Below the pieces are notes generated by a model. It had not been told where the DNA came from and made no database searches. It worked only from the letters and a program-made list of their open reading frames with translations. A stretch of 42,468 bases of DNA from Desulfobacteraceae bacterium (GTDB lineage: Bacteria > Desulfobacterota > Desulfobacteria > Desulfobacterales > Desulfosarcinaceae). Each line of letters begins with the position of its first letter. Positions within the stretch are counted from its first letter, which is position 1. Positions 11,844 through 42,468 of this stretch are shown piece by piece. The stretch is taken from contig JARRKU010000065.1 in NCBI GenBank assembly GCA_037387725.1, positions 7,008-49,475 of the forward strand, read 5' to 3'. Position numbers and translations under genes: made by a program.

Positions 11844-12017
11844 GAATCTTCCGCCCTTCTAAGGGGTCAATGCGTGGGATTAGCCATTTTTCTGTAGTGA
11901 TATTGTACACATACCACGGCAATGCAGGCGCCACAAGTCTCATGGTCGGTAGAATTGCCGAAGCATGGCATTCACCCTCTGCCCGTCAAGAAAGGACGAT
12001 CGACACGGAGCGGCAGG

Positions 12018-13145: not shown

Positions 13146-13541
13146 TTATTCCAAACTAAAGCCAACCACCTTTCCGTGCGAAAGACTCAAGCTCCCCAAT
13201 AATTGATATTTATCCCCTGAGATATGCACCTTCCATAAATGTCTTCGCATGCCGATACTTTTTATATCCCCGAGATATTCGAGTTGATACCCTTTTTCTA
13301 TTTTCGCACTTCGCTGCAGGATCAGAGAATCAAACGTATATTCATCCATAAAGGACTTAAATGCTTCATTTCCATGCTTGATGAACGCTTGGTGATTTTT
13401 GATTCTCAGTGCCTCCATTTGGAAGATCATCAGCTTTTCAACAGTCTCCGCTGATTCATCCTGTGCTGAAACTGTGTTTAGGGACAAGAGCAGGGACAAA
13501 AGAACCAAAATTGATGGCAAAAAGATCTTATCGAACCGCAA
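13146..13541 (-). CDS. Secreted hypothetical protein (signal peptide), AT-rich
   Basis: MRFDKIFLPSILVLLSLLLSLNTVSAQ signal peptide. Composition differs from neighbouring genes. Confidence 0.5.
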   Translation of the reverse strand: MRFDKIFLPSILVLLSLLLSLNTVSAQDESAETVEKLMIFQMEALRIKNHQAFIKHGNEAFKSFMDEYTFDSLILQRSAKIEKGYQLEYLGDIKSIGMRRHLWKVHISGDKYQLLGSLSLSHGKVVGFSLE

Positions 13542-13585
13542 TGCATCACCTCATCAATAAATTGTTATCGTCGATGCAGGCGCTA

Positions 13586-14120
13586 TCACAGGGCAAGGAT
13601 CATGACATTCCTGCGTGTGCCTGCCGTCTTTACAAATTGAAACCCCGCCTTCTCAAATGTTGAGACAAAACCCATAAACGTGTAACTCGGCGAGTCATGT
13701 GCAACAGGATAGGCTTCGATGTATCGGGCGCCGTTGTCCCTGGCATATTGAACGGCCGCATCTATCAGCCGCGATGTAATGCCCCTGTTTCTGAAGGGAC
13801 GTTTGATAAAAAAGCAGACCAAAGACCATACGCGATCTTTAGCTTCGTCTCCACCCAACGATCTGTAAGTATCGCGCGGAGCGATCGAACACCAGCCAAT
13901 CGGTTCATCTTCGAAGTAGGCAAGCAGCCCGATGGGCACACCGCGATGGACAAGGTCGCAAATCGAAGCCTTCCTGCCCGCTTTTCCGGATATCGTTGTT
14001 TTTGTAGGTATTGATCCGCCAAGCCATGCACCAGCAATAATGGGGGCCGCCCCTGCTTTCAAATAGCTGCTCGAAATCACTCCAGCGATCGGGTGTAACG
14101 GGATGGAAGTCGGGGTTCAT
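13586..14120 (-). pseudogene. GNAT-family N-acetyltransferase split by a frameshift
   Basis: N-terminal part (MNPDFHPVTPDRWSDFEQLFESRGGPHYCWCMAWR) is in the frame of ORF 13905-14120. The GNAT core (RNRGITSRLIDAAVQYARDNGARYIEAYP) is in the frame of ORF 13586-14080. The overlap contains a T5 run at about 13993-13997. Confidence 0.55.
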
Positions 14121-14184
14121 TTGAGAAAACGCATTTTGCGCCCTTTAATCTGGATTTGCCAAATTGCAGCGCAACGCAGCGGCA

Positions 14185-14607
14185 TCATTTAATGTAGTAA
14201 CCGGATACCCGCCATTTTCCATCTGCGTCTAACATGGGGGTTACGGTTTCGATGGCTGATTGTTTATTTTCAAAAGCAGTGCTGAACTGAATCACCACAT
14301 ATTGTCCGTCCGGCGCCCCCGGCAAGGATGTTCTGTAGGCGATGCGCTTAGGCACTCTGGACAGGAGCCTGCCAAGGGGCGTTCGCACAGTGCGGAGCAT
14401 CTGCACCCACTGCTCCTTGTTTACGGCATTCTTGAAGTAATCTGCTGCACTGTCCCAACTGTCGGCATAGGCTTCCTCGTCAACCCGCTGCAACCATTCC
14501 AGCGCGCTCGCCTTTGCAGCCTCCTTCTTTCCGGTATCGGCCATCGCGCATGACCACGCAACAAGCAGCATCCCAAGTGAAAGGATATACACGCGCCTAT
14601 TTATCAT
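14185..14607 (-). CDS. DUF4019-like secreted protein
   Basis: ATG 14607 with RBS GGGAGGTG. Signal peptide MINRRVYILSLGMLLVAWSCAMA. Body matches the DUF4019 pattern as recalled (ending ...DGKWRVSGYYIK). Confidence 0.6.
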   Translation of the reverse strand: MINRRVYILSLGMLLVAWSCAMADTGKKEAAKASALEWLQRVDEEAYADSWDSAADYFKNAVNKEQWVQMLRTVRTPLGRLLSRVPKRIAYRTSLPGAPDGQYVVIQFSTAFENKQSAIETVTPMLDADGKWRVSGYYIK

Positions 14608-14650
14608 TGTCACACCTCCCTTTTTGATAGGTCCAGCCGATCCGATCATT

Positions 14651-15466
14651 TCACCCCAAAGCCACGTCAAGGAGCATCATTACGGAAAAACCCGCCATGG
14701 TCATCATGGTAACCGTATCGATGTTTTCCATTTTTCTCTGGGATTCGGGTATGAGTTCCTCAACCACCACAAAAATCATGGCACCCGCCGCAAAGCATAA
14801 CGCATATGGCAGAACACTTTGCATTTTTAACACGAACAAGGCGCCGAAGACACCTGCGATGGGCTCCACGACGCCCGACGCCTGCCCCATGAAAAAGCTC
14901 TTGCCCTTTGACAATCCTTCTCTTCTCAGGGGCATGGAAACGGCTGTGCCTTCAGGAAAGTTTTGTAGACCGATGCCAATGGCCAGCGCTATAGCGCCGC
15001 CAAGCGTTGCAGAGGGAAGGTTGGCGCCAACCGCACCGAAAGCAACGCCGACCGCCAGGCCTTCGGGAATATTATGCATTGTAATGGCAAGCACCAGCAG
15101 CGTGCTCCGCTGCCACGAGGTTTTGATGCCTTCGCTTTTATCGATACTCAGGTTCGGGTGAAGATGGGGAAGAAATTTATCCGTCAGCCGCATGAACAAC
15201 CCGCCGGCCATAAACCCGATAACCGCTGTCAACCATGGTATTTGTCCCAAATTTTCAGCCATCTCGATACCCGGAGCGAGCAGAGACCAGAAACTCGCCG
15301 CAACCATAACGCCCGCTGCAAATCCGAGCATTGAGTCCAAAAGTTTCTGGTTAACGCCGCTGGTCACATAAACGAGCGCAGCGCCGGCCGCCGTTACCGC
15401 CCAAGTGAATAGAGTGGCAACAAACGCCTGACCAACCGGGTTGAATTGTTGGATAAATTCGATCAT
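14651..15466 (-). CDS. zupT: ZIP-family metal transporter
   Basis: 271 aa, 8 TM, with the conserved [10 protein letters not shown] and HxxPEG motifs. Confidence 0.9.
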
Positions 15467-15700
15467 ACGGCTATTTCCTTACGCTAAAGTTCACACGGCC
15501 GCCAGCCAATCCAAACGGCTGAACATCACAAATCCCGCTTCAACGATTGGCGGACACCAGTGGCCCAAAATGCCATCATAAGCCTGTTTGCGACTGCTCC
15601 CGCACCTATGGCATCGGCTTCTTTCCGGTTAAACAAATTTAATGGCAACGAAACTAATATGCTATCATTTGAACGGATTTCAAGTATTTTAAAATGCCTA

Positions 15701-16087
15701 TCATCTGATCAAATTAAGACAGTTAAGGCATTTGTATCGCTTTCTAAAAATAAAGATCGGCAATCCCGATAAAAGCGTCAGGGCCGCCGCTTTTCTTGTC
15801 CAATTGATCAAAACCAAATTCAGGGATCCGCATTTATTGCAACGCTCATCATCTGAAATCTCCGGAAATGGAATCCTCTCTAAAGCACTTGAACAATCCG
15901 TATTAAGAACTTTTTGCGCATCCTCGAAGTCGGATTCCAAGATTCGAAGTTTAACGCCACCTATTGCAAGAGAGATGGTCCATTGCATATTGATATGATG
16001 ATCACCAACGACCCATGAAGGTATGCCCTCATATTCCAACCGTGACTTGGCCAGATAAGCCAATGGCGGGTCGATAAATGACCTCAA
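15701..16087 (-). CDS. DUF2007-like putative signal-transducing protein with C-terminal CxxC...CxxC zinc ribbon
   Basis: LAYLAKSRLEYEGIPSWVV...GGVKLRILESDFEDAQKVL matches DUF2007. The C-terminus has CNKCG...CLNC. Confidence 0.55.
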   Translation of the reverse strand: MRSFIDPPLAYLAKSRLEYEGIPSWVVGDHHINMQWTISLAIGGVKLRILESDFEDAQKVLNTDCSSALERIPFPEISDDERCNKCGSLNLVLINWTRKAAALTLLSGLPIFIFRKRYKCLNCLNLIR

Positions 16088-16227
16088 TGTGATAAGCCGA
16101 TAATGCTTTCTATCGATAGCGCTTTTTCCTTACAAGTTCACTTAATGATTTCAGCAATTGTTTTTTAGGCCGAAATCAATTGAAAACAACAGCATCATTG
16201 CCATTGCACTACTTCGAACCATACAAC

Positions 16228-16731
16228 TTACCGCCCCAGCTTTTCTGCGTCCGTTGACGTTTCTTGTCTGACATTGATTTTCTCCTGGATAGCTTCAACG
16301 AATTTCTTATCCAACCCATTCTCACTGGAAACCGGAAAGCTAATTTCCATTTCTGATGATGTGGTTACCATGACATAGGAATCATCCCAAAACGAATCGT
16401 CATACTGCACGACTAGAGATACGATTTGATCAAAGGGAATGATCGTCTCGGGTTCTTCCCAGCTGCTTGAATATGCGATCAGATTTCTGTCCGTTACGAA
16501 ATAGAGGCCTGTCTTGATATCAAACAAGGCATCAGAATAGAAGTATCTGATTTGCTCATCTTCCTGGAGCAGGTTGAGCGACCTTATCGTCTTCATATAT
16601 TTCTTGGGAATTTGACGGCCCGGATACACCGCCGTATCAGGCCCACTAAATAGAATTGTGACAAATGCAATGAATATCAGCCCGATAATGGAGACACAGC
16701 CTAACCCTGTGTACTTCAGAGTCTTATTCAT
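16228..16731 (-). CDS. Membrane-anchored hypothetical protein
   Basis: N-terminal TM anchor (GLGCVSIIGLIFIAFVTILF). AT-rich. No known family recognised. Confidence 0.5.
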   Translation of the reverse strand: MNKTLKYTGLGCVSIIGLIFIAFVTILFSGPDTAVYPGRQIPKKYMKTIRSLNLLQEDEQIRYFYSDALFDIKTGLYFVTDRNLIAYSSSWEEPETIIPFDQIVSLVVQYDDSFWDDSYVMVTTSSEMEISFPVSSENGLDKKFVEAIQEKINVRQETSTDAEKLGR

Positions 16732-16921
16732 TTATTCCTTTCTTCCTGCCCCCGAAAGCGGACTGTTCACAGAACCATAATTAATAGCGCACAAGGATGC
16801 AAAAGCCCCTCATCCGAGAATTGTAACAAGTTGATCATCTGCATTGATCGATCACCTATTTTTCGAAATATTTTTGAACAGTGTCGATTAGTGGTCCTCG
16901 CTGTCCTTCACCATCGGGTTG

Positions 16922-17320
16922 TTACGCGTCGTTTTTTCCATACACCACAAGGGATCCGACAGCAAAATCGTGAATTGCTCTTTTATTTCTCGAGAATGGA
17001 ATTGTAAAAAATGAAAGCAACCCCAGGACAATTTTTACGATTATTCGCAAATAAGCCTGAACGATGGATATTTTCTCTCCTGTTGAAAATTTCCGGATTC
17101 GGATACCCGTAACTTTTTGACCGAGCGTGCAATAAAAGGCCGTAAAGATCGGTTCGTAAACAAAAAACATAAAGAGTATGATAATGATTCTTACGTTTAT
17201 TGCAGTGGCGTTTTCGCTATCCAAAATATAAGAAGATAGAAAAAGCATACCGATTATGAACAAACCATCAATGAATGTAGATAAATATCTCCTGAGAATA
17301 CCAGGATGTACGATCTCCAT
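16922..17320 (-). CDS. RDD-family membrane protein
   Basis: RRYLSTFIDGLFI... with 3 TM and a C-terminal RAIHDFAVGSLV motif typical of RDD. Confidence 0.6.
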   Translation of the reverse strand: MEIVHPGILRRYLSTFIDGLFIIGMLFLSSYILDSENATAINVRIIIILFMFFVYEPIFTAFYCTLGQKVTGIRIRKFSTGEKISIVQAYLRIIVKIVLGLLSFFTIPFSRNKRAIHDFAVGSLVVYGKNDA

Positions 17321-17419
17321 ATTTGAAAATTCCTTTATTTACGATTAAAAATATAAGGCGAACGAAAGGCGGAGACGCGCGTCTTCTTTGCGTGCTGTGT
17401 CTCAAGCGACATGTGCCAT

Positions 17420-17995
17420 TCATTCATTATTAATTAATTTCAGCTGTTTATAGACATCATCCAAGGTAATAACCTCGTTTTCCCGAGGAGGATCGATTTT
17501 AATTGAATCGCCAGTTGTGAAGACCGTTGTTACATATCCTTCAATTATCTCAATCTGTGATGATAACTTTCTAACTGAAGGATCTAACGAAGACTCCTCC
17601 TTAACAAGTTCAACATCACACCCCATATAATAAACCTGCAATGAAAAAACACCTATGGGTGCCGGAAACCTGAATCCTGTTTCTACAATATACGGAGGAG
17701 AATCACCGTAAGGAAAAATGTCCTCGGATAAAAACTTCTCGCTATTTAAATACACGACCAAATGGCATGATGACGGTGGGGAAGGTTTCCACTTATCTGC
17801 TTCCTCCGGGGGTAAGTCTTTTGGTTTTTCTATTGAGGGTATCTGATCATCGAACAGTTCAACTTCGACCCAACCATGCGGTTGTGAGGTAATATATGCT
17901 TTCCGGCTTTCGCTGATATTGGCAACAACTTTTTTTGCACAGCCCAGCACCGTCAGCATGATGCAGAAAATAATTACGATATGCTCAATCTTCAT
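17420..17995 (-). CDS. Hypothetical lipoprotein
   Basis: Signal peptide with lipobox VLGCAK. No known domain. Confidence 0.55.
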   Translation of the reverse strand: MKIEHIVIIFCIMLTVLGCAKKVVANISESRKAYITSQPHGWVEVELFDDQIPSIEKPKDLPPEEADKWKPSPPSSCHLVVYLNSEKFLSEDIFPYGDSPPYIVETGFRFPAPIGVFSLQVYYMGCDVELVKEESSLDPSVRKLSSQIEIIEGYVTTVFTTGDSIKIDPPRENEVITLDDVYKQLKLINNE

Positions 17996-18049
17996 GCTAT
18001 CTCCATTGTGATTAAAAGGACCTAATAACCGGCGAGTATGCGAATCCGA

Positions 18050-18853
18050 TTAATTTTCTTGTTGGACGGCAACGGATCGACATCTTAGTTTAAACCCATT
18101 TGCTTTTGCGTCTGCAGTTATTGCAGTTGCCACTCTAGTGGCCTTCTCATATGTTGGAGTGGAAATTAGTATGCCACCATTCGTATGAATATCAAGCATC
18201 ATTGAGATTGCATCTTCTTGGGTCATGTTCAGGTGGGTCGTTAAGCTGGATACCACAAATTCCATTGTCGTGTTATTGTCATTTAGAATCTCTATACCTG
18301 TTGTAAAATCTGGCGGCATGAAACCCTGAAGCTGCGTCAGCCGAGTTTTTGAGGAAAACGTAGCTGATGTGTCAGGATAAGAGTAATGCCGTCCACGCAC
18401 TCGGTTAGCCAGTAGCTTCCACAGCAAATAGCCATCTGTCCCGAAATCATCGCCATGGCGTTTATGGGGAATGAGATTCAATACAAGAACTATACCATTC
18501 GCAATAGTGAAAGTTATGACTAAGCATGTACCGAAAATCGAAGTTGGATTTCCAAAGATAATTAGATAGGAAGCGGTACCGAGAAGCAGTAGCGCCTGCG
18601 CCAATATACCTGCAGAAGAAAATGCTATTGCTGTAATGAAATTAGGTGGAGGCTCTGTTATACATAAACCACCTGCACCTGAAATCTCTAAGCTAAAAAC
18701 CTTTAGCCCCAAAATACGAGCTGCAGATGCATGTCCTAGTTCATGAAGAATAATGAGCAGGGTGTACGCGATACAGAAATAGATCGTTTCAGGAATTGCA
18801 AACTTTATAATAATATAGATCAGCAATCCTGCTGCTGGGACCGACCAGAGCAC
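18050..18853 (-). CDS. M50-like (site-2-protease type) membrane metalloprotease fused to a C-terminal ClpS-like domain. Start uncertain.
   Basis: HELGHA in a TM helix plus NLIPHKRHGDDFGTDG (the NxxPxxxxDG motif). The C-terminal ~80 aa (ILNDNNTTMEFVVSSLTTHLNMTQEDAISMMLDIHTNGG...) follows the ClpS adaptor pattern. The long ORF (to 19111) overlaps the upstream SLT gene, so the start is probably the internal GTG at about 18853. Confidence 0.6.
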   Translation of the reverse strand: MLWSVPAAGLLIYIIIKFAIPETIYFCIAYTLLIILHELGHASAARILGLKVFSLEISGAGGLCITEPPPNFITAIAFSSAGILAQALLLLGTASYLIIFGNPTSIFGTCLVITFTIANGIVLVLNLIPHKRHGDDFGTDGYLLWKLLANRVRGRHYSYPDTSATFSSKTRLTQLQGFMPPDFTTGIEILNDNNTTMEFVVSSLTTHLNMTQEDAISMMLDIHTNGGILISTPTYEKATRVATAITADAKANGFKLRCRSVAVQQEN

Positions 18854-18912
18854 ATAAACTGGTATATCTTTTAGAAATGTAATTTTTACCGCAGAATTTG
18901 CAAATCGCCGCG

Positions 18913-19512
18913 TCAGCTTTTGCGGTAGATGCGAAAGGCCCGCATTACTTTTCGGACGTAGCGTTGGGTTTCCGGGTAGGGGGGAATATCGTTGTACTTT
19001 TCCACGGCCGTGGGGCCGGCATTGTAAGCGGCCAGTGCCAGGTCGACCTGCCCGCTGAAGCGTTCCAACATGGTCTTGAAATAGAAGGCGCCGCCCATGA
19101 TGTTCTCCCACGGGTCGAAAGGATCGTTGATATTAAGCTTATCCAGATTCTCCGGCATGATCTGCATCAGGCCCAGGGCCCCTTTTTTGGAGACGGCTCT
19201 GGGATTGAAGTAGGATTCCACATGGATGACGGCTTTAAGCAGGGAGGAGGAGAGGCCGTTGCGCGCGGCCGCCTCTGATATGACGTCGTCGTAGTTTTTG
19301 ATGTTGTAAAGGGCGCTGCGGTATTTGGAAGGTTCCGGCATATACACTTTGTACTTGCTGGAGGTGGGTGTGTTGGTGAAATGCAGCACTCCCTGGCTGT
19401 CCACGTATAGATAGATATCCGCTTGTGCGGCGGAAGTGACAAAAAGCGTCACCCCGATGACAATAAGCTTAAGCGTCCATTTGATCCGTTTGTTTGCAGA
19501 ATGCTTTTCCAT
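18913..19512 (-). CDS. Lytic transglycosylase (SLT domain), secreted
   Basis: Signal peptide. SLT motifs ES...GLMQIMP and AAYNAGP. Confidence 0.85.
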   Translation of the reverse strand: MEKHSANKRIKWTLKLIVIGVTLFVTSAAQADIYLYVDSQGVLHFTNTPTSSKYKVYMPEPSKYRSALYNIKNYDDVISEAAARNGLSSSLLKAVIHVESYFNPRAVSKKGALGLMQIMPENLDKLNINDPFDPWENIMGGAFYFKTMLERFSGQVDLALAAYNAGPTAVEKYNDIPPYPETQRYVRKVMRAFRIYRKS

Positions 19513-31132: not shown

Positions 31133-31528
31133 AGCAGCAGGAAAGCCCAATGCCGCTCCTGATGCAGCCATGGTTTTTGTCGTATTGACAAGCCGTATCG
31201 GCTATGATTTTCTAGATAAACAGCAGACGGTCCGCTCCTTCGATCTCCTTCGACACCGGCAGCCGTTGCTTTTCCCTGCTCACCGGAGCAAGTGCAGCCG
31301 TTCTCTGCAAAACGGGGGGGTCTCGCCTGCCGCAGCATCGGAACTGCTGCAATCCCATATCGAGAAAATCGACCCGGCAAGGGCTGTTACGGCCTTGCCG
31401 TAGCATCCATATTCATAACGCCGCGCGCGACCGGGAGCCCTTTGCTTTTCTGCGAACCGCTGCCGGCCGGCGGATCGGTAATGGTTTGCCTTTGGTGCGT
31501 CGGCATGGAGAAAAGGGAGGTATCGGAA

Positions 31529-33408
31529 ATGGCAGAGAACCAAGCGGCGATGGACAAGAGTCTGGACCCGGCCGTACGGCAGATGATCGCCAAGGCGCAG
31601 GACCAGGAGGTGAGCACGGTGTGGGACCGCTATGCGGCCATGACCCCCCAATGCAGTTTCGGCGACACGGGCTTGTGCTGTCGCCACTGCCTGCAGGGGC
31701 CCTGCCGCATCGATCCCTTTGGTGAAGGCCCCCAAACCGGCATCTGCGGCGCCAACGCCGACGTGATGGTGGCCAGGGGGCTCGACCGGGCCATTGCGGC
31801 CGGCACGGCGGCCCACTCGGGACATGCCCGCCATCTGGCCCACACCCTGAAAAAGATGGCCCAGGGAAAGACCGAAGCCTATACGATCAAAGATGGCGAC
31901 AAACTAAGGGCTGTGGCCGCACGGCTCAACATTGACGTGGAGGGCCGCCAGGAGAGCGAGATCGCCCTGGATGTGGCCGATGCGGCCCTGGCCGATTTCC
32001 ACGAAAAGGAGACCCCTGTGCTCTGGGCAGCCACAGTGGTCAACGAGGAACGGGCCAAGGTGCTCACCGACCTCAACCTGGTGCCCGTGGGCATCGACCA
32101 CGAAGTCTCCGAAATCATGCACCGCACCCTCTACGGCGTGGACGCGGATCCGGTCAACCTGCTCATCGGCGGGCTGCGATGCGGGGTGGCCGATCTGGCC
32201 GGTTGTTACATGGGCACCGACCTGGCCGATATCCTCTTCGGCGTTCCCCAGCCCACCATGACCGCCGCCAATCTGGGCACCCTGAAGGCCGATGCGGTCA
32301 ACATCGCCCTGCACGGCCACAATCCGGTGCTCTCCGATCTGCTGGTCACCTCCGCCGAAGCCAAGCAGGATGCGGCGCGCGCGGCCGGCGCCTCCGGCAT
32401 CAACCTGGTGGGGATCTGCTGCACGGGCAACGAGGTGATGATGCGCCACGGCATCCCGGCCTGCACCCATTCGGTGAGCCAGGAGATGGCCATCATGACC
32501 GGCGCCCTGGACGCCATGGTGGTGGACTACCAGCCGGCACCGAGATCATCACCACCATGGATATCGCCAAGATCAGCGGCGCCACCCATGTGGACTTCAG
32601 CGAAGAGCTGGCCGGTCCCAAGGCGTATGAGATCTTCGACAGGGCCATCGACAACTTCAAACGGCGGCGAAACAAAGCCGTGGACATACCGGATGTCAAG
32701 ACCCCGGTGATGGCCGGCTTCTCGGTAGAGGCCATCGTAGCGGCGCTCTCCAAACTGGACGCCAACGAGCCCCTCAAACCGGTGGTGGACCACCTCAAGG
32801 CGGGCAATATCCGCGGGGTCTGCCTCTTTGCCGGCTGCAACAACGTGAAGGTGGCCCAGGACAGGAACTTCATCCATATCGCCAGAAAACTGCTCAAAGA
32901 GAACGTGCTGGTGGTGGCCACCGGGTGCGGCGCCGGCGCATTGATGCGCCACGGCTTCATGGACCCGGCCAACACGGACGCGCTTTGCGGCGACGGCATC
33001 AAAGCGGTGCTCACCGCCATCGGCGAAGCCAACGGCTTGGGCGGACCGCTGCCGCCGGTGATCCACATGGGTTCCTGCGTGGACAATTCCCGGGCCGTGG
33101 CCCTCACCGTGGCCCTGGCCCAGTATGTGGGCGTCGACACCCAGCAACTGCCGGTGGTGGCTTCGGCCGCCGAAGCGGTTTCGGAAAAGGCGGTCTCCAT
33201 CGGCGCCTATGCCGTGGCGGCCGGACTGCCCACCCATGTGGGGGTGATGCTCCCGGTGCTGGGCAGCCAGCTGGTGGCCCAGGTGCTCACCGAAAAAGTC
33301 AAGGACCTGACCGGCGGCTACTTCATCGTGGACCTCGATCCGGACAGCGCCGCAGACAAGCTGCTGGCCGCCATTGACGAACGGCGGAAAGGGCTGGGAC
33401 TTGAATAA
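31529..33408 (+). pseudogene. cooS: Anaerobic carbon-monoxide dehydrogenase catalytic subunit, interrupted by a frameshift or internal deletion near 32534
   Basis: ATG 31529 with RBS AAGGGAGG. N-terminal Cys motifs (CSFGDTGLCCRHCLQGPCRI) and C-cluster region (INLVGICCTGNE). The reading frame switches between ...AMVVDYQ (frame 2) and GTEIITTMDIAK... (frame 1). The expected DYQC cysteine segment is absent. Confidence 0.75.
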
Positions 33409-35408: not shown

Positions 35409-35543
35409 AATATCGAACAAGGAACCGCAGAATGTCGAAATTAAGCATTCTGTCATTTATATATATAAGAATGGCAGAGCGAAGCGATTCCACACTTCGA
35501 CATTCGAAATTCCTTGTTCGATATTCTGCGGTTCTATCCCGCC
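35409..35543. repeat. Palindromic repeat element B, inverted relative to element A, overlapping the recD2 stop
   Basis: GGAATTTCGAATATCGAACAAGGAACCGCAGAATGTCGAA ... CCACACTTCGACATTCGAAATTCCTTGTTCGATATTCTGCGGTTC. Confidence 0.7.
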
Positions 35544-37711
35544 AGGTCCGGGTTTAACCGCCACCCCAGCAAGGATCGGCGCTGGTTGGGCGCGTCGGCC
35601 TGGACCGCCACGCGCACGGCCTTGGCCGAGCCGACCAGGATCACCATCCGCCTGGCGCGGGTCAGGGCGGTATATAACAGATTCCGCTGCAGCATGATGT
35701 AGTGCTGGGTGACCATGGGCAGGATAATCACCGGGTACTCGGAGCCCTGGGACTTGTGCACGGAGATGGCGTAGGCCAGGGTCAGCTCGTCCAGGTCGGC
35801 CTCGTCGTAGGCGACCTCCCGGCCGTCGTAGCTCACCCAGAGGCGCGCCGCCTCCCGGTCCAGCCGCGCCACCGTGCCGATCTCGCCGTTGAAGACCTCC
35901 TTTTGATAGTTGTTGCGCAGGTGCATTACCTTGTCGCCCAGGCTGAAGGCGTCCCCCTTTTTCACCTGGGGGTTGAGGGCGGTCTGCAGCAGGCCGTTCA
36001 GGGCCATGGTGCCCAGATTGCCTTTGTGCATGGGCGTGAGCACCTGCACATCGGTGACGCCGTCCAATCCCAACTGACCGGGAATCTTCTCTTTGCAAAG
36101 GGAGAGGATGATGCCGGGTATGTTGTCGGGCCGCAGTTCTTCGATGAAGGTGAACTCGGCCAAAGTTGCATCTTTCGGCGCCGGCGCCATCTCTGGCAAT
36201 TCCCCCTGCCGGACGCGATGGGCATTGGCGATGATGGGACTCATGGCTGCCTGGCGGAAGACCTCGGTGAGGGCAAAAGCGGGAATCATCCCGGTCGCCA
36301 TCAGATCCCCCAGCACCGTCCCCGGCCCCACAGAGGGCAGCTGGAAGACATCGCCCACCAGGATCAGACGGGCGCCGTGGGGCAGGGCCCGCACCAGATG
36401 GCCCATGAGGGCCAGGTCCACCATGGAGGCCTCGTCCACCACCACCGCCTCGGTATCCAGGGGATTGTCCTGGTCATGCTCGAAATGGCCTTCGGCGAGA
36501 TTGAACCCCAGCAGCTTGTGCAGGGTGGCCGCCGGACGGTGAGCCACCTCGGAGATTCGCCGGGCGGCCCGGCCGGTGGGCGCGGCCAGCAGATAGGCGA
36601 TGCCCGACGCTTCGAACATGGCCGCAACGGCCCGTATGATGGTGGTCTTGCCGGTACCCGGACCGCCGGTGATGATCACCAGTCGCTGGTTCAGCACGCT
36701 CTGCAGCACGGTCAACTGGGTCCGGGAGAGCTGAATGGCCAAACGCCGCACAACGGCCTCGGCAATCTGCCCGGCGTCCACATCCGCATGCGCCACAGGA
36801 ATGGTCAGCATGGCCTGGAGCCGCTGGGCGATCCCGGTCTCGGCAGCATAAAGCGCCTGCCGGTAGACCGGCTCACCGGGCGCCTGACGGTCGATGACGA
36901 TCTCCCGGTCCTCGACGAGTTGATCCAGAGCATCCTGCACCGCATCGTAACTGAGATGGAAGGCCTGATCGCAACTCGCCTCCACCTCGGCCCTGCCAAC
37001 GAACAGATGCCCCTTTTCCCCGGCCTCGTAAAGCAGGTGACACACACAGGCCCTGGCCCGATCTGTTTCGTCGATGGGCCGATCGGATTTCCGTACGATG
37101 GCATCGGCGATATAGAACCCGATATGGGGGATGTCCGACGCCACTTTATAGGGATCGTTTTTCAGGATCTCCAGGGCGTCCGGGCCGTATGTCTTGTAGA
37201 TGCGCGCGCCATAGGCCGGTTTGACGTCATTATCCTGCAAAAACTGCATCAGGGCTCGCACGGCGTGATGCTCCTGCCAGGCCTGGGCTATTCGCCCGGC
37301 CCGGTCCCGGCCGATGCCTTTGACCTCGGTCAGCCGGTGCGGGGCGCTTTCAATGACCGACAAAGTCTCCTTCTTGAAGTGCGCAATCAGCCGCTCCGCC
37401 GTCTTGGGGCCCACCCCCTTGATCAGGCCGGAGAAGAGATAGTGCCGGATCTCTTCGATCCCGGAGGGCAGCAGCACTTCAAAGGCGGCCACCTTGAACT
37501 GCTGGCCGTAGCGGGGATGGGTCTCCCAGCGCCCTTTCAGGCGCAGGGTCTCGCCGGGCCGCGGCTCGGGAAAGTGGCCCAGCACCGTCACCAGGCCGCG
37601 CGCCTCGGCCACCCGCAGCTTGGCGATCATGAAATGATTCTTCTTACTGCGGAAGGTGATGCGCTCGATCTGGCCTTCGATGGTGTTGGGAGAGGATACA
37701 GCCATGGTCAT
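35534..37711 (-). CDS. recD2: RecD2-type ATP-dependent DNA helicase (SF1)
   Basis: 725 aa from ATG 37711. HhH region and Walker A GGPGTGKTT. Its start abuts and overlaps the gmhB stop. Confidence 0.9.
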   Translation of the reverse strand: MTMAVSSPNTIEGQIERITFRSKKNHFMIAKLRVAEARGLVTVLGHFPEPRPGETLRLKGRWETHPRYGQQFKVAAFEVLLPSGIEEIRHYLFSGLIKGVGPKTAERLIAHFKKETLSVIESAPHRLTEVKGIGRDRAGRIAQAWQEHHAVRALMQFLQDNDVKPAYGARIYKTYGPDALEILKNDPYKVASDIPHIGFYIADAIVRKSDRPIDETDRARACVCHLLYEAGEKGHLFVGRAEVEASCDQAFHLSYDAVQDALDQLVEDREIVIDRQAPGEPVYRQALYAAETGIAQRLQAMLTIPVAHADVDAGQIAEAVVRRLAIQLSRTQLTVLQSVLNQRLVIITGGPGTGKTTIIRAVAAMFEASGIAYLLAAPTGRAARRISEVAHRPAATLHKLLGFNLAEGHFEHDQDNPLDTEAVVVDEASMVDLALMGHLVRALPHGARLILVGDVFQLPSVGPGTVLGDLMATGMIPAFALTEVFRQAAMSPIIANAHRVRQGELPEMAPAPKDATLAEFTFIEELRPDNIPGIILSLCKEKIPGQLGLDGVTDVQVLTPMHKGNLGTMALNGLLQTALNPQVKKGDAFSLGDKVMHLRNNYQKEVFNGEIGTVARLDREAARLWVSYDGREVAYDEADLDELTLAYAISVHKSQGSEYPVIILPMVTQHYIMLQRNLLYTALTRARRMVILVGSAKAVRVAVQADAPNQRRSLLGWRLNPDLAG

Positions 37712-38289
37712 CCGCAACAGAGAGGTGGCAGCGGCGGTTCGGACAAAATCAAGTCGGCCGCAGCAGCGAGATCGTCCACCACCAGGGTGGGCGATACCTG
37801 CTTGGCGGCCAGCTCCTTCTCAGCCTGGCGCCCGCAACCGGTGCGCACCAGCATGGTGGCCCCGCAACCGGCATTCTGGCCGCAAAGCACATCCTTGATA
37901 TTGTCGCCGATCATCACCGTACATGGCAGATCAATGGCGTGGGCGGTCTTGGCCTGAAAGATCATGCCGGGCTCCGGCTTGCGGCAGTCGCACTGCTCAT
38001 CGGGGTGGTGGGGGCAGTAGTAAATATCGAAGATCTTCCCCCCGGCCGCTTCAACCGCCCGGCGCATGCGGTGAAACATATCTTCCAGCACCGACAGCGG
38101 CACCATGCCCCGCCCGATAATGGACTGATTGGTAATAACGATCAAATGATATCCGGCCCTGGTCAGGGCCGCCAAAGCCTCCAGGCTGCCGGGAAGAAAT
38201 TCAAATTCCTCCCAGCTCTTGATATAATCGGGTGAGTCCCGGTTGATCACCCCGTCCCGATCCAGAAAGATTACATTTTGCAGTATCAT
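37708..38289 (-). CDS. gmhB: D-glycero-beta-D-manno-heptose-1,7-bisphosphate 7-phosphatase (HAD-IIIA)
   Basis: FLDRDGVIN HAD motif I, CxC zinc site (CDCRKPEPGM), and the GDxxxD motif. RBS GGGAG. Confidence 0.85.
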   Translation of the reverse strand: MILQNVIFLDRDGVINRDSPDYIKSWEEFEFLPGSLEALAALTRAGYHLIVITNQSIIGRGMVPLSVLEDMFHRMRRAVEAAGGKIFDIYYCPHHPDEQCDCRKPEPGMIFQAKTAHAIDLPCTVMIGDNIKDVLCGQNAGCGATMLVRTGCGRQAEKELAAKQVSPTLVVDDLAAAADLILSEPPLPPLCCG

Positions 38290-38549
38290 GGCTCCCGCAT
38301 TTCCGATTACAGCTTAAACCGTCCGGCAAAAGGCAACAGCGGCAATGATCAAGATCAGCCCATACCGCATGAAGCCTAAATCATTAACCCATCGAATGCA
38401 ATTATTCATCACCGTGATGGGGACACGCATAAAATCAAATAAATCGCCACCCGACCCATATGACCATCCTGTTGTGGCCCAACACCATAACCGTTAGATA
38501 ACAAATAGTTACAAATTTAACAAGATTCATGGCATAATTCTCCAACATA

Positions 38550-38570
38550 CTTATGTGTCAGACACATAAG
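38550..38570. promoter_or_regulatory. Perfect 10-1-10 palindrome (candidate operator)
   Basis: CTTATGTGTC-A-GACACATAAG in the AT-rich region between gmhB and the first cassette ORF. Confidence 0.4.
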
Positions 38571-38797
38571 TGCGTAATTTAAACATATTGTTGCACTCAA
38601 ACGGATTATCAAAAGGCATAGCAGGGCTATGGAGTGGGACTTTAGATCGATTGAACCACTCGATTATTCAGAGAATATATGATGTAGGCGTGAATCAACC
38701 TTACCGATCTTGGCCTTATAGCGATAAAAAGCAAAATTTTTCCATAATATTGTTGTATATTCCGCAAGAATATCACACAATCATAACAAATACAGAC

Positions 38798-38876
38798 AAT
38801 TAACAAAAAATTGCACTCAATTGCGATTCAGCCGTCTTATCAAAAAGCAGCTGCGGCAGAATCTATAATGTTAAGT
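38798..38876 (+). repeat. attC/attI-like recombination site preceding the first cassette ORF
   Basis: Inverse-core-like AATTAAC (38798-38804), then 65 bp, then core GTTAAGT (38870-38876) 8 nt before ATG 38885. The reverse complement of the core (ACTTAAC) equals the inverse core of the next site. Confidence 0.4.
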
Positions 38877-38884
38877 TTCAAAGT

Positions 38885-39565
38885 ATGAATATACCTTTGA
38901 CATATTATTTTGAATACTGGTTTAAGAATTCTTTGCTGGCTTTGTTAACCGGCTTTTTAATTACTTTTCTAATTCCGCCTTTGTTAGCGGCATTGCCATT
39001 GTTTGGCCTAATTCTGTTTTTAATGTATCAGATGATTATATATCGACATTTTTGGGGAAAAAGGAGAGGAGATTTTGAGTTCTCTTCTAAGGAAAATCTT
39101 ATAAAGAGGAAGATTAATTCCTTTATAAAACAGCAGCTTGGAATAGGGGAATTGATACGTTATAAATTAGACCACCTAAACAGCATTATTACCTATGGAT
39201 GGGATATGTATCATAAGCTTGCGCGACGGTCAGAAAATCAAGATGAAATTTTTCATTATTTCTTAAATTTAATTGGAGCTGATCTTTCTCGAAAGGAAGG
39301 TGACTTTAAAAAGGAACGGGAATATCTAATAAACGCAGTATTAGCGTCCCCAGATGATACAGTATCTAATTTTCGACTTGCAGTTACATTTGAGCAAGAG
39401 GGACGATCTGACGAGTCAGTAAATTATTATAGAAAGGCTTTAGAGGCTTCCTCAATTGATACGCCTGAGCTCAAAGAGTTTATAATGGGTCAAATTACCC
39501 GTGTAATTGAAAAAGGCCCAGCCAAAAGCCCGCCAGTCCCGGGGTTGAGGTTTATGTCATGGTAA
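38885..39565 (+). CDS. Cassette ORF 1: 2-TM protein with TPR-like C-terminal region
   Basis: 226 aa, AT-rich. A hydrophobic hairpin (LLALLTGFLITFLIPPLLAALPLFGLILFLM) followed by a soluble helical domain. Confidence 0.5.
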   Translation: MNIPLTYYFEYWFKNSLLALLTGFLITFLIPPLLAALPLFGLILFLMYQMIIYRHFWGKRRGDFEFSSKENLIKRKINSFIKQQLGIGELIRYKLDHLNSIITYGWDMYHKLARRSENQDEIFHYFLNLIGADLSRKEGDFKKEREYLINAVLASPDDTVSNFRLAVTFEQEGRSDESVNYYRKALEASSIDTPELKEFIMGQITRVIEKGPAKSPPVPGLRFMSW

Positions 39566-39578
39566 TGGGAAAAAGGAA

Positions 39579-39650
39579 ACTTAACCATGCCTTTCACTCG
39601 GATGGCAATTCCGCTGCGCTACATTGCCACCGGTGAAGGCGGCGTTATCT
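39579..39650 (+). repeat. attC-like site 1
   Basis: ACTTAAC...imperfect palindrome with bulges (GCCTTTCACTCGGATGGCAAT / ATTGCCACCGGTGAAGGCGG)...GTTATCT. Starts 14 nt after the ORF1 stop. Next ORF starts at 39669. Confidence 0.5.
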
Positions 39651-39668
39651 TCGTAAGGTGGAGGAACT

Positions 39669-39977
39669 TTGGGAAAGATTCTATTTAAAGTATCTGGAGC
39701 ATATGATCTATCCGAGTATCGATGGTGGCACGATTCTGAAGATGGGAAAAGTTATCTTTACCTCGAATTTAAAGGTGGAGATGGCGAATGCGCTATCAAA
39801 TTTACAAATCCTTATTCAATTGATTCAACTTTTGAGCTTTTCGAGGATTTTCATGAACTCGTTGTGTATGATTCGAAGGAAGATCAGTGGGAAAAACATA
39901 CGGTTAAGGCTGAATATTTCGTTGAATCATTTCATGAGTTTTGGGCAGAGGCATTTGATATAATATCGGGCAGATAA
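39669..39977 (+). CDS. Cassette ORF 2: small acidic cytosolic protein (102 aa)
   Basis: TTG start with strong SD AGGTGGAGGA 5 nt upstream. No family recognised. Confidence 0.45.
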   Translation: MGKILFKVSGAYDLSEYRWWHDSEDGKSYLYLEFKGGDGECAIKFTNPYSIDSTFELFEDFHELVVYDSKEDQWEKHTVKAEYFVESFHEFWAEAFDIISGR

Positions 39978-40097
39978 CCTTGCTGTCCAGAGGGACAGCA
40001 AAGGCCGGGCCACTATGAAAGATATTGCTTTATCAAATTTAAAACCGTTTACAAAGGTCAGTGGAAGCCCTTGCTGCCCCTGACCGCAGCGTTAGGG
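39972..40097 (+). repeat. attC-like site 2
   Basis: AGATAAC (contains the ORF2 TAA), CTTGCTGTCC-AGAG-GGACAGCAAG hairpin ... CTTGCTGCCCCTGACCGCAGC GTTAGGG (40091-40097). Next ATG at 40105. Confidence 0.5.
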
Positions 40098-40104
40098 GGG
40101 GCTC

Positions 40105-40554
40105 ATGGCAGATGATTTGTTTGATAAGCAACACGATGAACCACTTGTAATAGCGCTAAAAAAGGATGATCCTGAGTTGTTAAAGTGTACGAAGAAGGCT
40201 CAAGAGACACTTCAGGTTTTTCTTGATCTTTATGAACAGTATCATAAGGATATTTCGATATACTTCGCCATTAAGGTACCAATAGAGACCGATGATGATC
40301 CAGTTCATCTTTGGTATTCATTTAATGGTATAGAAAAAGGTTTGCTGGTAGGAGAGCATTTTCAAATTCCACAGGGGTTTGAACACTTAAAGAATATTAA
40401 GGTTAAGCCTGAAATCATCGAAGACTGGATGATAAATGACCATGAGATATTGTATGGCGGTTTTTCATTAAGGTATCAACGATCATTGCTCCCTGAGGGA
40501 CGAAGACCAAAATATGATGAGTATATGGGGGTTAGGGAATATAAAGATATTTAG
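40105..40554 (+). CDS. Cassette ORF 3: hypothetical protein (149 aa)
   Basis: RBS AGGGGGGG. Hydrophilic protein, no confident family assignment. Confidence 0.5.
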   Translation: MADDLFDKQHDEPLVIALKKDDPELLKCTKKAQETLQVFLDLYEQYHKDISIYFAIKVPIETDDDPVHLWYSFNGIEKGLLVGEHFQIPQGFEHLKNIKVKPEIIEDWMINDHEILYGGFSLRYQRSLLPEGRRPKYDEYMGVREYKDI

Positions 40555-40555
40555 C

Positions 40556-40613
40556 CCCTAACAATCGGCTGTTGGCGAACTCGCTTTGCTCGCCGCAAAG
40601 CCGCACGTTCGGC
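40556..40613 (+). repeat. attC-like site 3
   Basis: CCCTAAC 2 nt after the TAG, AATCGGCTG ... GCTTTGC-TCGCC-GCAAAGC hairpin ... CCGCAC GTTCGGC. Next ATG at 40631. Confidence 0.5.
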
Positions 40614-40630
40614 GTCTAAAGGGACAACAT

Positions 40631-41281
40631 ATGGCTATGCAACTCTCTCATGCTTTACTGGAAATGCATGACATTCGGATTTTTCGAGTCGAAGATTCAG
40701 AGGAATTTGATTCTGACAACTTCATAAAATGGGACGTGACTCCCATTGAAACAGATGTCCTTTTGGAACAGGATGGTTTATTTATTTTACGCGCATTTCA
40801 GATTAAGGGACCCAACGAAAAAATTGACTGCTTCATTGATCTGACAATGCCCGAAAGAATAGCTGATTATGCTTATTTCATAGGTTCTGGCAATGTGGAA
40901 CGTAAGTATCTTCACGAATGTGATGGTAATGTTATCTGTGCTATACCGATTGATGGTCACGGCGTATATGATCTATTTTATTCAAAAATTAATCCTGACC
41001 TCGGGCTGTCAGTCCTCCGACGAGGGCTTGAGCTTGCTACTCGGAAAGTTTTCATAGCAGAGGATCTTGGATATATTTTACGCGATGAAGGCCGTATTGA
41101 AGAGGCGATAGAAGCGTTTAGTATATCAGCCTCTGAAGAACCATCGTCATACTTCATATATCACGAACTTGCAGAACTTTACGATCAGCTGGGTCAGACC
41201 GAGCTTTCAAAACAGTACCGCGACAAGTGCCCAAAACAGGATACTCAAATGAAAAGAAAACCGTGGTGGAAGCTATGGTAA
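40631..41281 (+). CDS. Cassette ORF 4: hypothetical protein with TPR-like C-terminus (216 aa)
   Basis: ATG 40631 preceded by AAAGGGA. No known family. Confidence 0.5.
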   Translation: MAMQLSHALLEMHDIRIFRVEDSEEFDSDNFIKWDVTPIETDVLLEQDGLFILRAFQIKGPNEKIDCFIDLTMPERIADYAYFIGSGNVERKYLHECDGNVICAIPIDGHGVYDLFYSKINPDLGLSVLRRGLELATRKVFIAEDLGYILRDEGRIEEAIEAFSISASEEPSSYFIYHELAELYDQLGQTELSKQYRDKCPKQDTQMKRKPWWKLW

Positions 41282-41283
41282 AT

Positions 41284-41344
41284 GCCGAACCTCTCGCTGG
41301 TGAGGACGGCGAGGACCATGCCGCCTCACAGCTTGGCGTTGTGC
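41284..41344 (+). repeat. attC-like site 4
   Basis: GCCGAAC 3 nt after the TAA (the exact reverse complement of site 3's GTTCGGC core). GCTGGTGAGG ... CCTCACAGC with one bulged base. Ends GTTGTGC. Next ATG at 41361. Confidence 0.5.
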
Positions 41345-41360
41345 GCCTCGATATTGAGCT

Positions 41361-41747
41361 ATGAACGAGAATAATCTAAAATACAGCCCCCTCCCGCATT
41401 ACACGTCAAAAGAGCAAATTGAACGTGTTCTTGAAGGAGATGATGTTGAGGAATTGATTAGGTTGCCGCTGGCGATAGGCTCCTCATATCATGATTGGAA
41501 ATATGCGCAAGACACTTGCATAAAGCTATCAGAGTATGAGGATGCTAGAATAAGCTCTAATGCGTGCTTGGGATTAGCATATGTCGCAAGAAATCATTTG
41601 AAGCTTGAAAAGCATTTGATAAAGCCAGTCCTGATTAAAGAATTAAGAAAAAATCACAAATATAATTGGCGTGTAATTGATTCAATTGAGGATATAAATA
41701 GGTTCATGAAATGGAATATTGCTATTAAACACTTTCAAAATAAATGA
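41361..41747 (+). CDS. Cassette ORF 5: hypothetical protein (128 aa)
   Basis: AT-rich ORF, no known family. Confidence 0.5.
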   Translation: MNENNLKYSPLPHYTSKEQIERVLEGDDVEELIRLPLAIGSSYHDWKYAQDTCIKLSEYEDARISSNACLGLAYVARNHLKLEKHLIKPVLIKELRKNHKYNWRVIDSIEDINRFMKWNIAIKHFQNK

Positions 41748-41754
41748 GAAGATC

Positions 41755-41824
41755 GCACAACATTTGTGTTCAGCGGATCGCGAGGACCATGCGCCCGCTG
41801 AAAAAACGGTATTGTGGGTTTGAT
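41755..41824 (+). repeat. attC-like site 5
   Basis: GCACAAC (the reverse complement of site 4's GTTGTGC core). TTCAGCGG ... CCGCTGAA 8-bp arms. Ends ATTGTGG/GTTTGAT. Shares the 13-mer GCGAGGACCATGC with site 4. Confidence 0.5.
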
Positions 41825-41834
41825 CGAAATTGGT

Positions 41835-42275
41835 ATGAGTCTATCTGAATTACAAAAGAAGGGACTCGACATAAAAAAATCGAAAAATGTAGCGAATCTT
41901 CCTAATCCGGAGCATTATCAAATCGACTCTTTAGGAATCGATTTTGAAATATACGATAGTAAAATAATTCGTATTTGGTTTTTTACCGAAAAAAATAAAT
42001 CATTTCAGCTTTGGCTACCAAATGAGTCCTCAGAAAGGCTGCTATATAAAATTTCGGCTTCTGACATTATTCGAAACTTTGGGGTAGTAAGAAAATATGT
42101 TGATGAGAATCCTCCAAAAGATAAAGATGAAGCGCAGTGGGCAAAATACAAACCATTTGGAATAAAGATAAACACGATTTATTATCCGAAATTGCCCTTT
42201 CATTTTGGATTAAATGATGAGGATAATGTTTCTTATCTAACCGTATCTAAATGTAAAACAGAAACTGCGCAATAG
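41835..42275 (+). CDS. Cassette ORF 6: hypothetical protein (about 147 aa; alternative GTG start at 41814)
   Basis: AT-rich ORF, no known family. Confidence 0.45.
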   Translation: MSLSELQKKGLDIKKSKNVANLPNPEHYQIDSLGIDFEIYDSKIIRIWFFTEKNKSFQLWLPNESSERLLYKISASDIIRNFGVVRKYVDENPPKDKDEAQWAKYKPFGIKINTIYYPKLPFHFGLNDEDNVSYLTVSKCKTETAQ

Positions 42276-42281
42276 GGTTTC

Positions 42282-42384
42282 ACATAACATCTATATGGCC
42301 TTCCGTTGTCAAGGAATAAACCACCCCACGGGATCGGAAGAAGTGAAAAGTCCAAAATCCGGTAAAACTCTGAAGAGTTGACAA
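42282..42384 (+). repeat. attC-like site 6
   Basis: ACATAAC 7 nt after the TAG. Inverted repeats CTTCCG/CGGAAG and GTTGTCAA/TTGACAAC. GTTGACA core at 42378-42384. Confidence 0.4.
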
Positions 42385-42468
42385 CGCGTTTGGTAACTCC
42401 GACTTTGGCTTTCAACAGCAGGCATCAGACAGCTTTCCAGCGTCTGCACCAAACATCTATCGAAATTT

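Follow-up and report, generated by a model that had tools for sequence, protein, structure and literature searches.

A conserved non-coding element with a perfect palindrome adjoins the first cassette of an integron array upstream of gmhB in a Desulfobacteraceae chromosome

The window analyzed here is a 42,468-nt stretch of a Desulfobacteraceae chromosome, near Desulfatitalea. Towards its right end, a 595-nt spacer (38290-38884) with 39% GC, inside a chromosome of about 60% GC, separates gmhB from a series of small, AT-rich plus-strand ORFs with imperfect hairpins between them. The interval flagged in the initial annotation (38550-38884) is the distal part of a longer module within this spacer, designated element X, which lies between the gmhB promoter region and the first cassette of an integron array. 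The features of the locus are as follows.

35534-37717, minus strand: recD2, in core synteny with gmhB
37708-38289, minus strand: gmhB (D,D-heptose 1,7-bisphosphate phosphatase, HAD family; Pfam HAD matches), overlapping recD2
38373-38401, minus strand: putative gmhB promoter, TTGCAT-17-TAGGCT (consensus TAGGNT), predicted from the consensus
38471-38870, plus strand: element X, conserved non-coding leader or platform, about 400 nt
38471-38499, plus strand: left-end 28-nt block of X, GTTGTGG-CCCAAC-A-CCATAAC-C-GTTAGAT, with core-like and inverse-core-like heptamers
38530-38538, plus strand: putative outward promoter P-a, predicted extended -10 TGGCATAAT, just upstream of the palindrome
38550-38570: palindrome CTTATGTGTC-A-GACACATAAG, perfect
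38549-38571: extended palindrome ACTTATGTGTC-A-GACACATAAGT, perfect 11+1+11
38591-38618, plus strand: repeat copy 1, TTGCACTCAA-N5-TTATCAAAAGGCA (TTGCACTCAA at 38591-38600, TTATCAAAAGGCA at 38606-38618)
38811-38849, plus strand: repeat copy 2, TTGCACTCAA-N16-TTATCAAAAAGCA (TTGCACTCAA at 38811-38820, TTATCAAAAAGCA at 38837-38849, in the loop of hairpin 2)
38825-38863: hairpin 2, GATTCAGCCG ... CGGCAGAATC, from folding, 6 nt 5' of the crossover
38870-38876, plus strand: crossover core GTTAAGT, with the left boundary of cassette 1 at G38870|T38871, 8 nt 5' of the ATG at 38885
38871-39644, plus strand: cassette 1, with ORF 38885-39565 (TM plus TPR protein) and attC1 at 39579-39650
39645-41811, plus strand: cassettes 2-5, with boundaries G39644, G40091, G40607, G41338 and A41811; attC2 at 39972-40097, attC3 at 40556-40613, attC4 at 41284-41344 and attC5 at 41755-41817
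41812-42468, plus strand: cassette 6 (ORF 41814-42275), then the start of further array up to the window end

The homologues of gmhB in the fetched loci (given L numbers here) are named D-glycero-D-manno-heptose 1,7-bisphosphate phosphatase in their sources, and the synteny of gmhB with recD2 recurs at about 30 Desulfobacteraceae loci. The promoter-like block in front of gmhB is the sole intergenic block that is strongly conserved in the window, L047/48, L002, L049/50, L051, L056, L067 and L068. Judged by this conservation, gmhB-recD2 with its promoter is the ancestral core of the locus; because the core synteny is kept across the Desulfobacteraceae, gmhB does not stand in a former intI slot, as the initial annotation had supposed. 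The DNA upstream of gmhB is a hot spot of variability, and other relatives carry unrelated genes there. A sign change in GC skew near 38.5 kb and a DnaA-box-like TTATCAAAA led us to consider an origin of replication (oriC), which was rejected when the region proved unconserved among relatives. Resemblance to a dif/Xer-like site, as judged by eye, extends to parts of the arms only.

The 5' end of an integron cassette (TTRRRY of R') is complementary to the R'' of its own attC. We searched both strands of the whole 42-kb window for chains of exact 7/7 complementarity of this kind and found only one, which starts at 38870 and runs through five consecutive cassettes. In 5/5 of these the R' core is the exact reverse complement of the R'' of the cassette's own attC, and each R'' follows directly after the stop codon.

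Cassette 1: R' GTTAAGT at 38870, R'' ACTTAAC at 39579
Cassette 2: R' GTTATCT at 39644, R'' AGATAAC at 39972
Cassette 3: R' GTTAGGG at 40091, R'' CCCTAAC at 40556
Cassette 4: R' GTTCGGC at 40607, R'' GCCGAAC at 41284
Cassette 5: R' GTTGTGC at 41338, R'' GCACAAC at 41755

Since the only exact R'/R'' chain in the window starts there, G38870|TT is a true integrase crossover: G38870, the last base of X, is the point at which cassette 1 was joined by an integron integrase. The region flagged in the initial annotation does, then, adjoin an integron crossover, with GTTAAGT at 38870 exactly complementing the R'' of attC1. The exact chain test was used instead of a crude AAC/GTT hairpin scanner for attC, which was unspecific (about 65 background matches per strand). 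No attC covariance model was built; a MAFFT alignment of the five sites was structurally inconsistent, with 5 consensus pairs only. On folding, attC1, attC3, attC4 and attC5 each form a single hairpin, and the long attC2 does not close into one. The R'' expected for cassette 6, CCACAAT, has no exact match within the window, and cassette 1 has no obvious Shine-Dalgarno sequence. Copies of cassette 5 that are 100% identical occur in two metagenome contigs (L069 and L070), with different neighbors there and with the identity beginning exactly at the core. Thus, the cassettes are mobile in the population, now or recently, at least one of them demonstrably circulates in this environment, and this identity likewise points to an active integron integrase in the community.

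No integrase gene was found near the array, in agreement with the initial annotation. Pfam scans of all large ORFs of the window gave no Phage_integrase match and no tyrosine recombinase, and a six-frame Pfam scan of the spacer, with E values up to 10, gave nothing relevant that could be an intI remnant. The initial annotation had proposed that tblastn with IntI might uncover an intI pseudogene; the search, with an IntI1 query, had no match in the window or in the 69 fetched loci. The islands upstream of gmhB in L002 and L047 are likewise free of integrase genes. The array runs past the right end of the window (42468), and the absence of an integrase or a remnant of one holds for the window's 38.9 kb to the left of the array.

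Element X recurs at the same position upstream of gmhB in L047, whose gmhB is 88% identical to that of the window. The two copies (window 38473-38872, L047 9778-9378) are 69% identical over 403 columns, and their MAFFT alignment has a single 1-nt indel. Their mismatches are spread evenly over the codon phases (37/41/40) and the reading frames are broken by stops in L047, so X is non-coding; a protein-coding X was rejected on this lack of codon periodicity and on these stops. X has no Pfam domain in six frames and belongs to no Rfam family, its Rfam matches being chance ones below threshold (E at least 0.58). No X-like DNA was found in plasmid or phage collections, and pattern scans of viral contigs gave either nothing or chance matches to the seed only. 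The consensus fold of X is weak on either strand apart from two hairpins (-28 kcal/mol over 342 nt).

The edges of X are sharp. To its left, 47 nt in the window and 188 nt in L047 are unrelated to each other, and everything to its right differs. Because the flanks on both sides are unrelated, X is, on the comparison of these two loci, a discrete module. The similarity ends at TATAATG|TT in the window and at TATGATA|TT in L047, which is the crossover of cassette 1, and the last 47 nt or so before this point are the best-conserved part of the 3' half of X. The junction triplet in L047 is ATT, not GTT, and the "cassettes" downstream of it do not obey the R'/R'' rule. Ten look-ups through gmhB homologues yielded further copies of X in L047/L048 only, the other relatives having different neighbors or contigs that were too short; conservation and covariation are accordingly scored on two independent copies (the window and L047), and the statistics are thin. 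The closest relative at the species level, L002 (recD2 89% identical), has cassettes upstream of gmhB and shares only 28 nt of X (38472-38499, 86% identity by BLAST), after which the divergence is complete. Beyond these 28 nt, X is thus common to the window and L047 and not to L002, and it was found only in lineages that bear cassettes.

The shared 28 nt make up the left-end block. Its CAACAMCATAACCGTTRGAT core is exact in L002, and the block is partly conserved in L047 and absent from the other loci. The simple site of an attI consists of a core and an inverse-core heptamer (PMC3146285), and CCATAAC-C-GTTAGAT (38485-38499), 375 nt upstream of the crossover, resembles such a site. At the crossover itself the corresponding DNA reads CTATAAT|GTTAAGT, with a weak inverse core ending in AAT. 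Of the two stretches, it is the block, and not the DNA at the real crossover, that comes closer to a classical attI simple site.

The palindrome, the direct repeats, the GTTAAGT core and the spacer are all present as the initial annotation had described them, and shuffles place their combination beyond chance. Palindrome arms of at least 11 nt arose in 2/2000 dinucleotide shuffles of the spacer. When the spacer is aligned with the related loci, as that annotation had advised, the palindrome is seen to be kept perfect in L047, whereas the repeats are absent there. The L047 palindrome, (C)ACTTATATGGA-A-TCCATATAAGT(G), is a perfect 11+1+11, or 12+1+12 with the flanking C-G pair, and at three inner positions both partners of a pair differ between the two copies (window GTGTC/GACAC, L047 ATGGA/TCCAT). 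By our own arithmetic, the chance that all 11 pairs stay complementary at 31% divergence is roughly 6 x 10^-4. The palindrome may therefore be maintained at the level of nucleic-acid structure, either as a 5' stem-loop of the leader transcript or as a DNA hairpin. At the twelfth pair the window has T.G where L047 has C-G; a U.G pair is allowed only on plus-strand RNA, a faint hint that the palindrome might be a 5' structure of the leader transcript. Perfect palindromes can also stay perfect through template-switch mutation, without selection. Two assemblies break at the palindrome. A role as the operator of a repressor, which had been proposed earlier, is possible, with the qualification that the inner arms covary rather than stay constant and that no regulator gene is adjacent.

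Two further features of X persist in L047. Hairpin 2 is kept there as a perfect 10-bp stem (TTCTGCCGAC/GTCGGCAGAA) at the same position. The CAT(G/C)GCATAATTC block of the putative promoter P-a is also conserved, and a -35/-10 scan finds GCGACA-17-CATAAT there; in the window, the -35 of P-a is too weak to pass the same scan.

The direct repeats behave differently from the palindrome. The 10-mer by itself recurs in 27% of spacer shuffles, which is not significant, and across the window 3 sites match TTGCACTCAA when one mismatch is tolerated, where 2.8 would be expected. The second motif shared by the copies, TTATCAAAARGCA, lies 5 nt after the first TTGCACTCAA and 16 nt after the second, and a 10-mer repeat with a second shared 9-mer within 25 nt in collinear order arose in only 2/5000 shuffles. 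The duplication reaches further through a third collinear block, ATAACAAATA... (38498 and 38783), so that 38498-38618 and 38783-38849 are partial duplicates, of which the first has about 57 extra nt that include the palindrome. No direct repeat was found in the L047 copy of X, where copy 1 has the counterpart TGGAACTCAATCGGATCGACTAAATGCA and copy 2 the counterpart AACCATTTTT...CTTACCAAAAAGCC. An exact scan of the metagenome collection for the repeat pattern returned three matches, all in unrelated AT-rich DNA. The repeats contain no GTT-type core, unlike DR1 and DR2, the IntI-binding repeats of attI1 (PMC3146285). The proposal that they are IntI-binding sites is thus not supported, in view of their absence from L047, their lack of a GTT core and the unrelated nature of the metagenome matches. 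More plausibly, they would reflect duplication or homogenization specific to the lineage of the window, rather than ancestral integrase-binding repeats.

Taken with the crossover, these comparisons lead us tentatively to read X as the leader of a CALIN and its attI-equivalent platform, orphaned in that the integrase acting on it would be encoded elsewhere, a reading to which we give somewhat less than an even chance. X would be the docking site for cassettes, recombined as duplex DNA by an integrase in the genome or the community, and with an outward promoter at 38530-38538 it would also be the transcribed leader of the array. Conservation that stops at GTT is the positional signature of an attI. 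As in the attI/Pc region of, for example, attI1, X lies immediately left of the first cassette, the crossover falls in the GTT of a core of the type 5'-GTTRRRY-3', conservation ends at the crossover, hairpin energy is low and an outward promoter is plausible. Unlike attI1, X has no intI gene or remnant adjacent to it in the window, is conserved over about 400 nt rather than about 65 bp, and has no clear inverse-core partner at the crossover, where CTATAAT ends in AAT and not AAC. It also lacks core-like direct repeats, which are an optional feature of attI and variable in other classes, and it holds a perfect covarying palindrome that is not part of the described attI1 architecture (PMC3146285). 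Of the attI-like leader proposed earlier, then, the conserved platform and the end of similarity exactly at GTT stand, and the repeats, not being conserved, do not.

The 3' end of X is also unlike an attC. Its last 60-100 nt fold at -0.10 kcal/mol/nt, as compared with about -0.21 for four true attCs, and for none of the candidate 5' ends of X was a complementary R'' found at attC distance (best 5/7). An attC at this end was rejected on that best R'' of 5/7, on the halved fold energy and on an R'' box that ends in AAT rather than AAC. Because it stands outside the R'/R'' chain and folds poorly, the right end of X resembles a duplex-type site, attI-like or attG-like, rather than one of the hairpin type.

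The array to the right of X has the makings of a CALIN, a class recognized by at least two clustered attC sites; here there are five with exact R'/R'' pairing. Like the CALINs of Cury et al. 2016 (PMC4889954), it has at least five attC sites in canonical orientation and cassettes of unknown function, with no intI and no pseudogene within 38.9 kb to the left, and CALINs without recognizable intI pseudogenes are common (PMC4889954). It differs from them in having a conserved non-coding leader, which the CALIN-defining paper (PMC4889954) does not describe, and in that the same leader sits at the same chromosomal locus in lineages with different content. Several points weigh against the platform reading of X. 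Its persistence in L047, where the junction is ATT and no array is obviously active, hints at a role that does not depend on recombination; L002 carries cassettes at this locus with no more of X than its first 28 nt; the left-end block has the more classical simple site; and the promoter in the window fails the scan. The small number of copies of X, template-switch mutation as another cause of a perfect palindrome, the lack of an obvious Shine-Dalgarno sequence in cassette 1 and the position of the array's right end beyond the window also count against it.

The left-end block offers another place for the attI. In this reading, which we hold to be unlikely, the true attI is the 28-nt block at 38471-38499 (simple site CCATAAC-C-GTTAGAT with upstream core GTTGTGG), and X was inserted there as a fixed first unit that lacks an ORF, be it a degenerate cassette or a unit of the delta-attI type, with its second site at CTATAAT|GTTAAGT (38863-38876). 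The block is the sole part of the leader common to all three cassette-bearing lineages, L002 diverges right after GTTRGAT, and in its core type GTTGTGG agrees with the starts of cassettes 5 and 6. Like attI simple sites, the block is built of core and inverse-core heptamers (PMC3146285), and functional cassettes with attI or delta-attI flanks have been described (PMC12901181). X does resemble these delta-attI-type cassettes in being bounded by two direct attI-like simple sites (38485-38499 and 38863-38876); it differs in having no ORF and in that its two sites match at 10/14 positions with a different spacer, and the known examples of such cassettes all come from mobile integrons of classes 1 and 2 (PMC12901181). 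The missing R'' and the poor folding of the 3' end of X count against its being such a unit. One would moreover expect the unit in first position to be the youngest of the array, and X, at 31% divergence and near indel-free, is old; the GTT of the block is CTT in L047; and in L002 the first cassette that obeys the rule starts 120-150 nt beyond the block, at GTTGACT. Also improbable, to a like degree, is that X is an independent host element, such as a regulatory region or an unstructured small-RNA or promoter module, on whose edge a cassette landed at a GWT attG site, the array then growing or turning over by attC x attC exchange. Its retention in L047 next to a decayed-looking array and an ATT junction would fit such an origin, as would the general variability upstream of gmhB, and integron integrases use genomic GWT sites for cassette insertion with high frequency (bioRxiv 10.1101/2022.09.11.507474). 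As in the attG/SALIN arrangement of Loot et al. (bioRxiv 10.1101/2022.09.11.507474), cassettes are joined here at G|TT to non-integron chromosomal DNA, no integrase is adjacent, and expression would depend on a nearby host promoter; the right-hand attG motif is CRGM, and the right side of X is now cassette DNA. What sets the locus apart from that arrangement is that two lineages with different downstream DNA have their junction at the identical nucleotide of a conserved element, which is unlikely under unspecific GWT targeting unless it was inherited. The lack of an Rfam family, the weak consensus fold and the restriction of X to cassette-bearing lineages speak against a host element as well.

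The remaining two explanations are far less probable. One is the model of the initial annotation taken as a whole, with TTGCACTCAA...TTATCAAAARGCA as the IntI-binding repeats of an attI, the palindrome as an operator and gmhB where intI was lost. The collinear repeat is indeed non-random in the window, its copies there are shifted toward each other relative to L047, which could reflect selection for two equal sites, and the palindrome sits just downstream of a -10-like element, a typical operator position. This model is at odds with repeats that do not recur in L047 or in homologous metagenome DNA and that lack the core of DR1/DR2, with the absence of an intI remnant, with the covarying inner arms and the lack of an adjacent regulator gene, and with the place of gmhB-recD2 and its promoter in the ancestral core. 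The other, at least as doubtful, makes X the end or site of a different mobile element: a nick region resembling oriT, a promoter segment that can invert or a MITE with inverted repeats at its ends. Like a MOBQ oriT of the RSF1010 type, X has an inverted repeat followed by TAAGTGCG; its core overlaps the repeat arm, whereas the RSF1010-type core lies 8 nt away, and the distance from repeat to nick differs from that of RSF1010. The match, CATAAGTGCG directly after the palindrome, is the 5' half of the MOBQ oriT core NWACCNNTAAGTGCGCCCTYNN (PMC3832669), but the CCCT half after the nick position is missing and L047 reads TAAGTGCA. The full combination of an inverted repeat, the consensus core TAAGTGCGCCCT (PMC3832669) and a relaxase nearby was not found. 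The break of two assemblies at the palindrome would suit a mobile element, as would an inverted copy of the block in L002 (AATCTAACGTTTATG, about 460 nt away, p = 0.046). No relaxase, transposase or invertase was found in the window, L002 or L047, and the plasmid and phage collections gave no match. We rejected a MITE or inverton with the 28-nt block in inverted copies at its ends, the inverted-repeat flank having p = 0.34 in the window, being absent from L047 and borderline in L002.

CALINs, attI sites, attG sites and delta-attI units are all known kinds. What is unusual here is a 400-nt non-coding module, near indel-free (one 1-nt indel) and with a covarying perfect palindrome, that two lineages share at one hot spot, where it is the fixed end of integrase-less arrays. 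Such arrays are common, their origin and activity are unclear, and in this case one boundary is fixed to the nucleotide. If X is not an attI-equivalent, the locus still exemplifies a clean CALIN in a chromosomal hot spot, and an unexplained conserved palindrome. If X is a working attI-equivalent served in trans, it would explain cassette exchange in integrase-less arrays. A stronger form of this reading, which the sequence comparisons make conceivable though we consider it improbable, is that X is a portable module that by itself provides cassettes with a docking site and a promoter at a fixed hot spot of the chromosome, with its integrase wholly in trans and the palindrome as a new functional component that would, for example, control leader transcription or recombinase access. 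Were this true, a portable attI-like module could seed and keep arrays at a distance from intI, and these would be more than the debris of broken integrons.

The second low-GC stretch of the window, at 12000-19500 (39-48% GC), carries the following genes:

12000-19500, minus strand: genes for a TIR-domain protein, a GNAT protein, a DUF4019 protein, a ZIP transporter and an M50B-like/ClpS fusion.

Two further proteins encoded on the minus strand of this stretch have no Pfam match, and a whole-window search for chains of consecutive cassettes with complementary R' and R'' cores found none within it. The stretch may be another acquired island. Further along, the hybrid-cluster protein (Prismane) gene at 31292-33408 consists of two overlapping ORFs in different frames, which cover positions 1-282 and 296-512 of the Pfam profile and join near 32535. 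The orthologue at locus L046 is a single gene encoding 746 aa; the split gene is either a frameshift pseudogene or the product of a sequencing error.

Within 38000-42468, the GC skew is weakly negative up to ~38.5 kb and clearly positive beyond, a switch that falls where the genes change orientation and where the foreign cassette DNA lies. A replication origin at this switch was considered and rejected because relatives do not conserve the region. Close by lies a promoter-like element, ~77 nt from the gmhB start codon, that is likely to serve this gene:

38373-38401, minus strand: putative gmhB promoter, TTGCAT-17-TAGGNT, kept in close relatives whose contigs extend there.

The palindrome at 38549-38571 is a breakpoint in two independent assemblies, both of which cover the gmhB side and stop at its far edge: L001 ends at window position 38577, and L048, from a relative, ends at the position equivalent to 9680 of the related locus L047. 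A fold-back or hairpin artefact is probably behind both breaks, although they may instead reflect population heterogeneity that begins at the palindrome edge. In the direct repeats described in the initial annotation, each of two motifs has, relative to L047, shifted toward its counterpart in the other copy: motif 1 in copy 2 (38811-38849) and motif 2 in copy 1 (38591-38618). This reciprocal homogenisation on the window lineage could represent gene conversion, or it could reflect selection for two equal sites.

Immediately beyond its homologue of the non-coding leader that precedes cassette 1, L047 carries a long, near-perfect hairpin (9355-9296) terminating in GAGCTTGGC-GTTCATA, which is similar to the 3' half of attC4 in the window, although it lacks R''. 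A fragment resembling an IS200-type transposase gene, judged by eye from its translation, lies at 6730-6500 of the same locus. At L002, another relative's gmhB locus, the first cassette encodes an NYN/OST-HTH protein and has its own AT-rich 5' leader of ~320 nt. It has two candidate starts (9101-9065), copies of CGTTGACT 30 nt apart, both of which exactly complement the attC R'' of that cassette, AGTCAAC at 8042.

In the window, attC5 (41755-41817) diverges from positions 440-500 of metagenome contig L069 from 41802 on (CCGCTGA|AAAAACGGTATTGTGG in the window versus CCGCTGA|CACAAGGCGTTAACT in L069), the remainder being 100% identical, and its R' is ATTGTGG, which is not GTT-type. The junction between cassettes 5 and 6 thus appears aberrant; a normal G|TT exchange is probably not what produced it. 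Cassette 5 itself (41338-41801), which encodes a 128-aa protein, is 100% identical in L069 and in a second metagenome contig, L070 (JGI 3300077100 and 3300077118), where both its upstream and downstream cassettes differ from those of the window. Such identity amid different neighbours provides direct evidence that cassettes have been shuffled recently.
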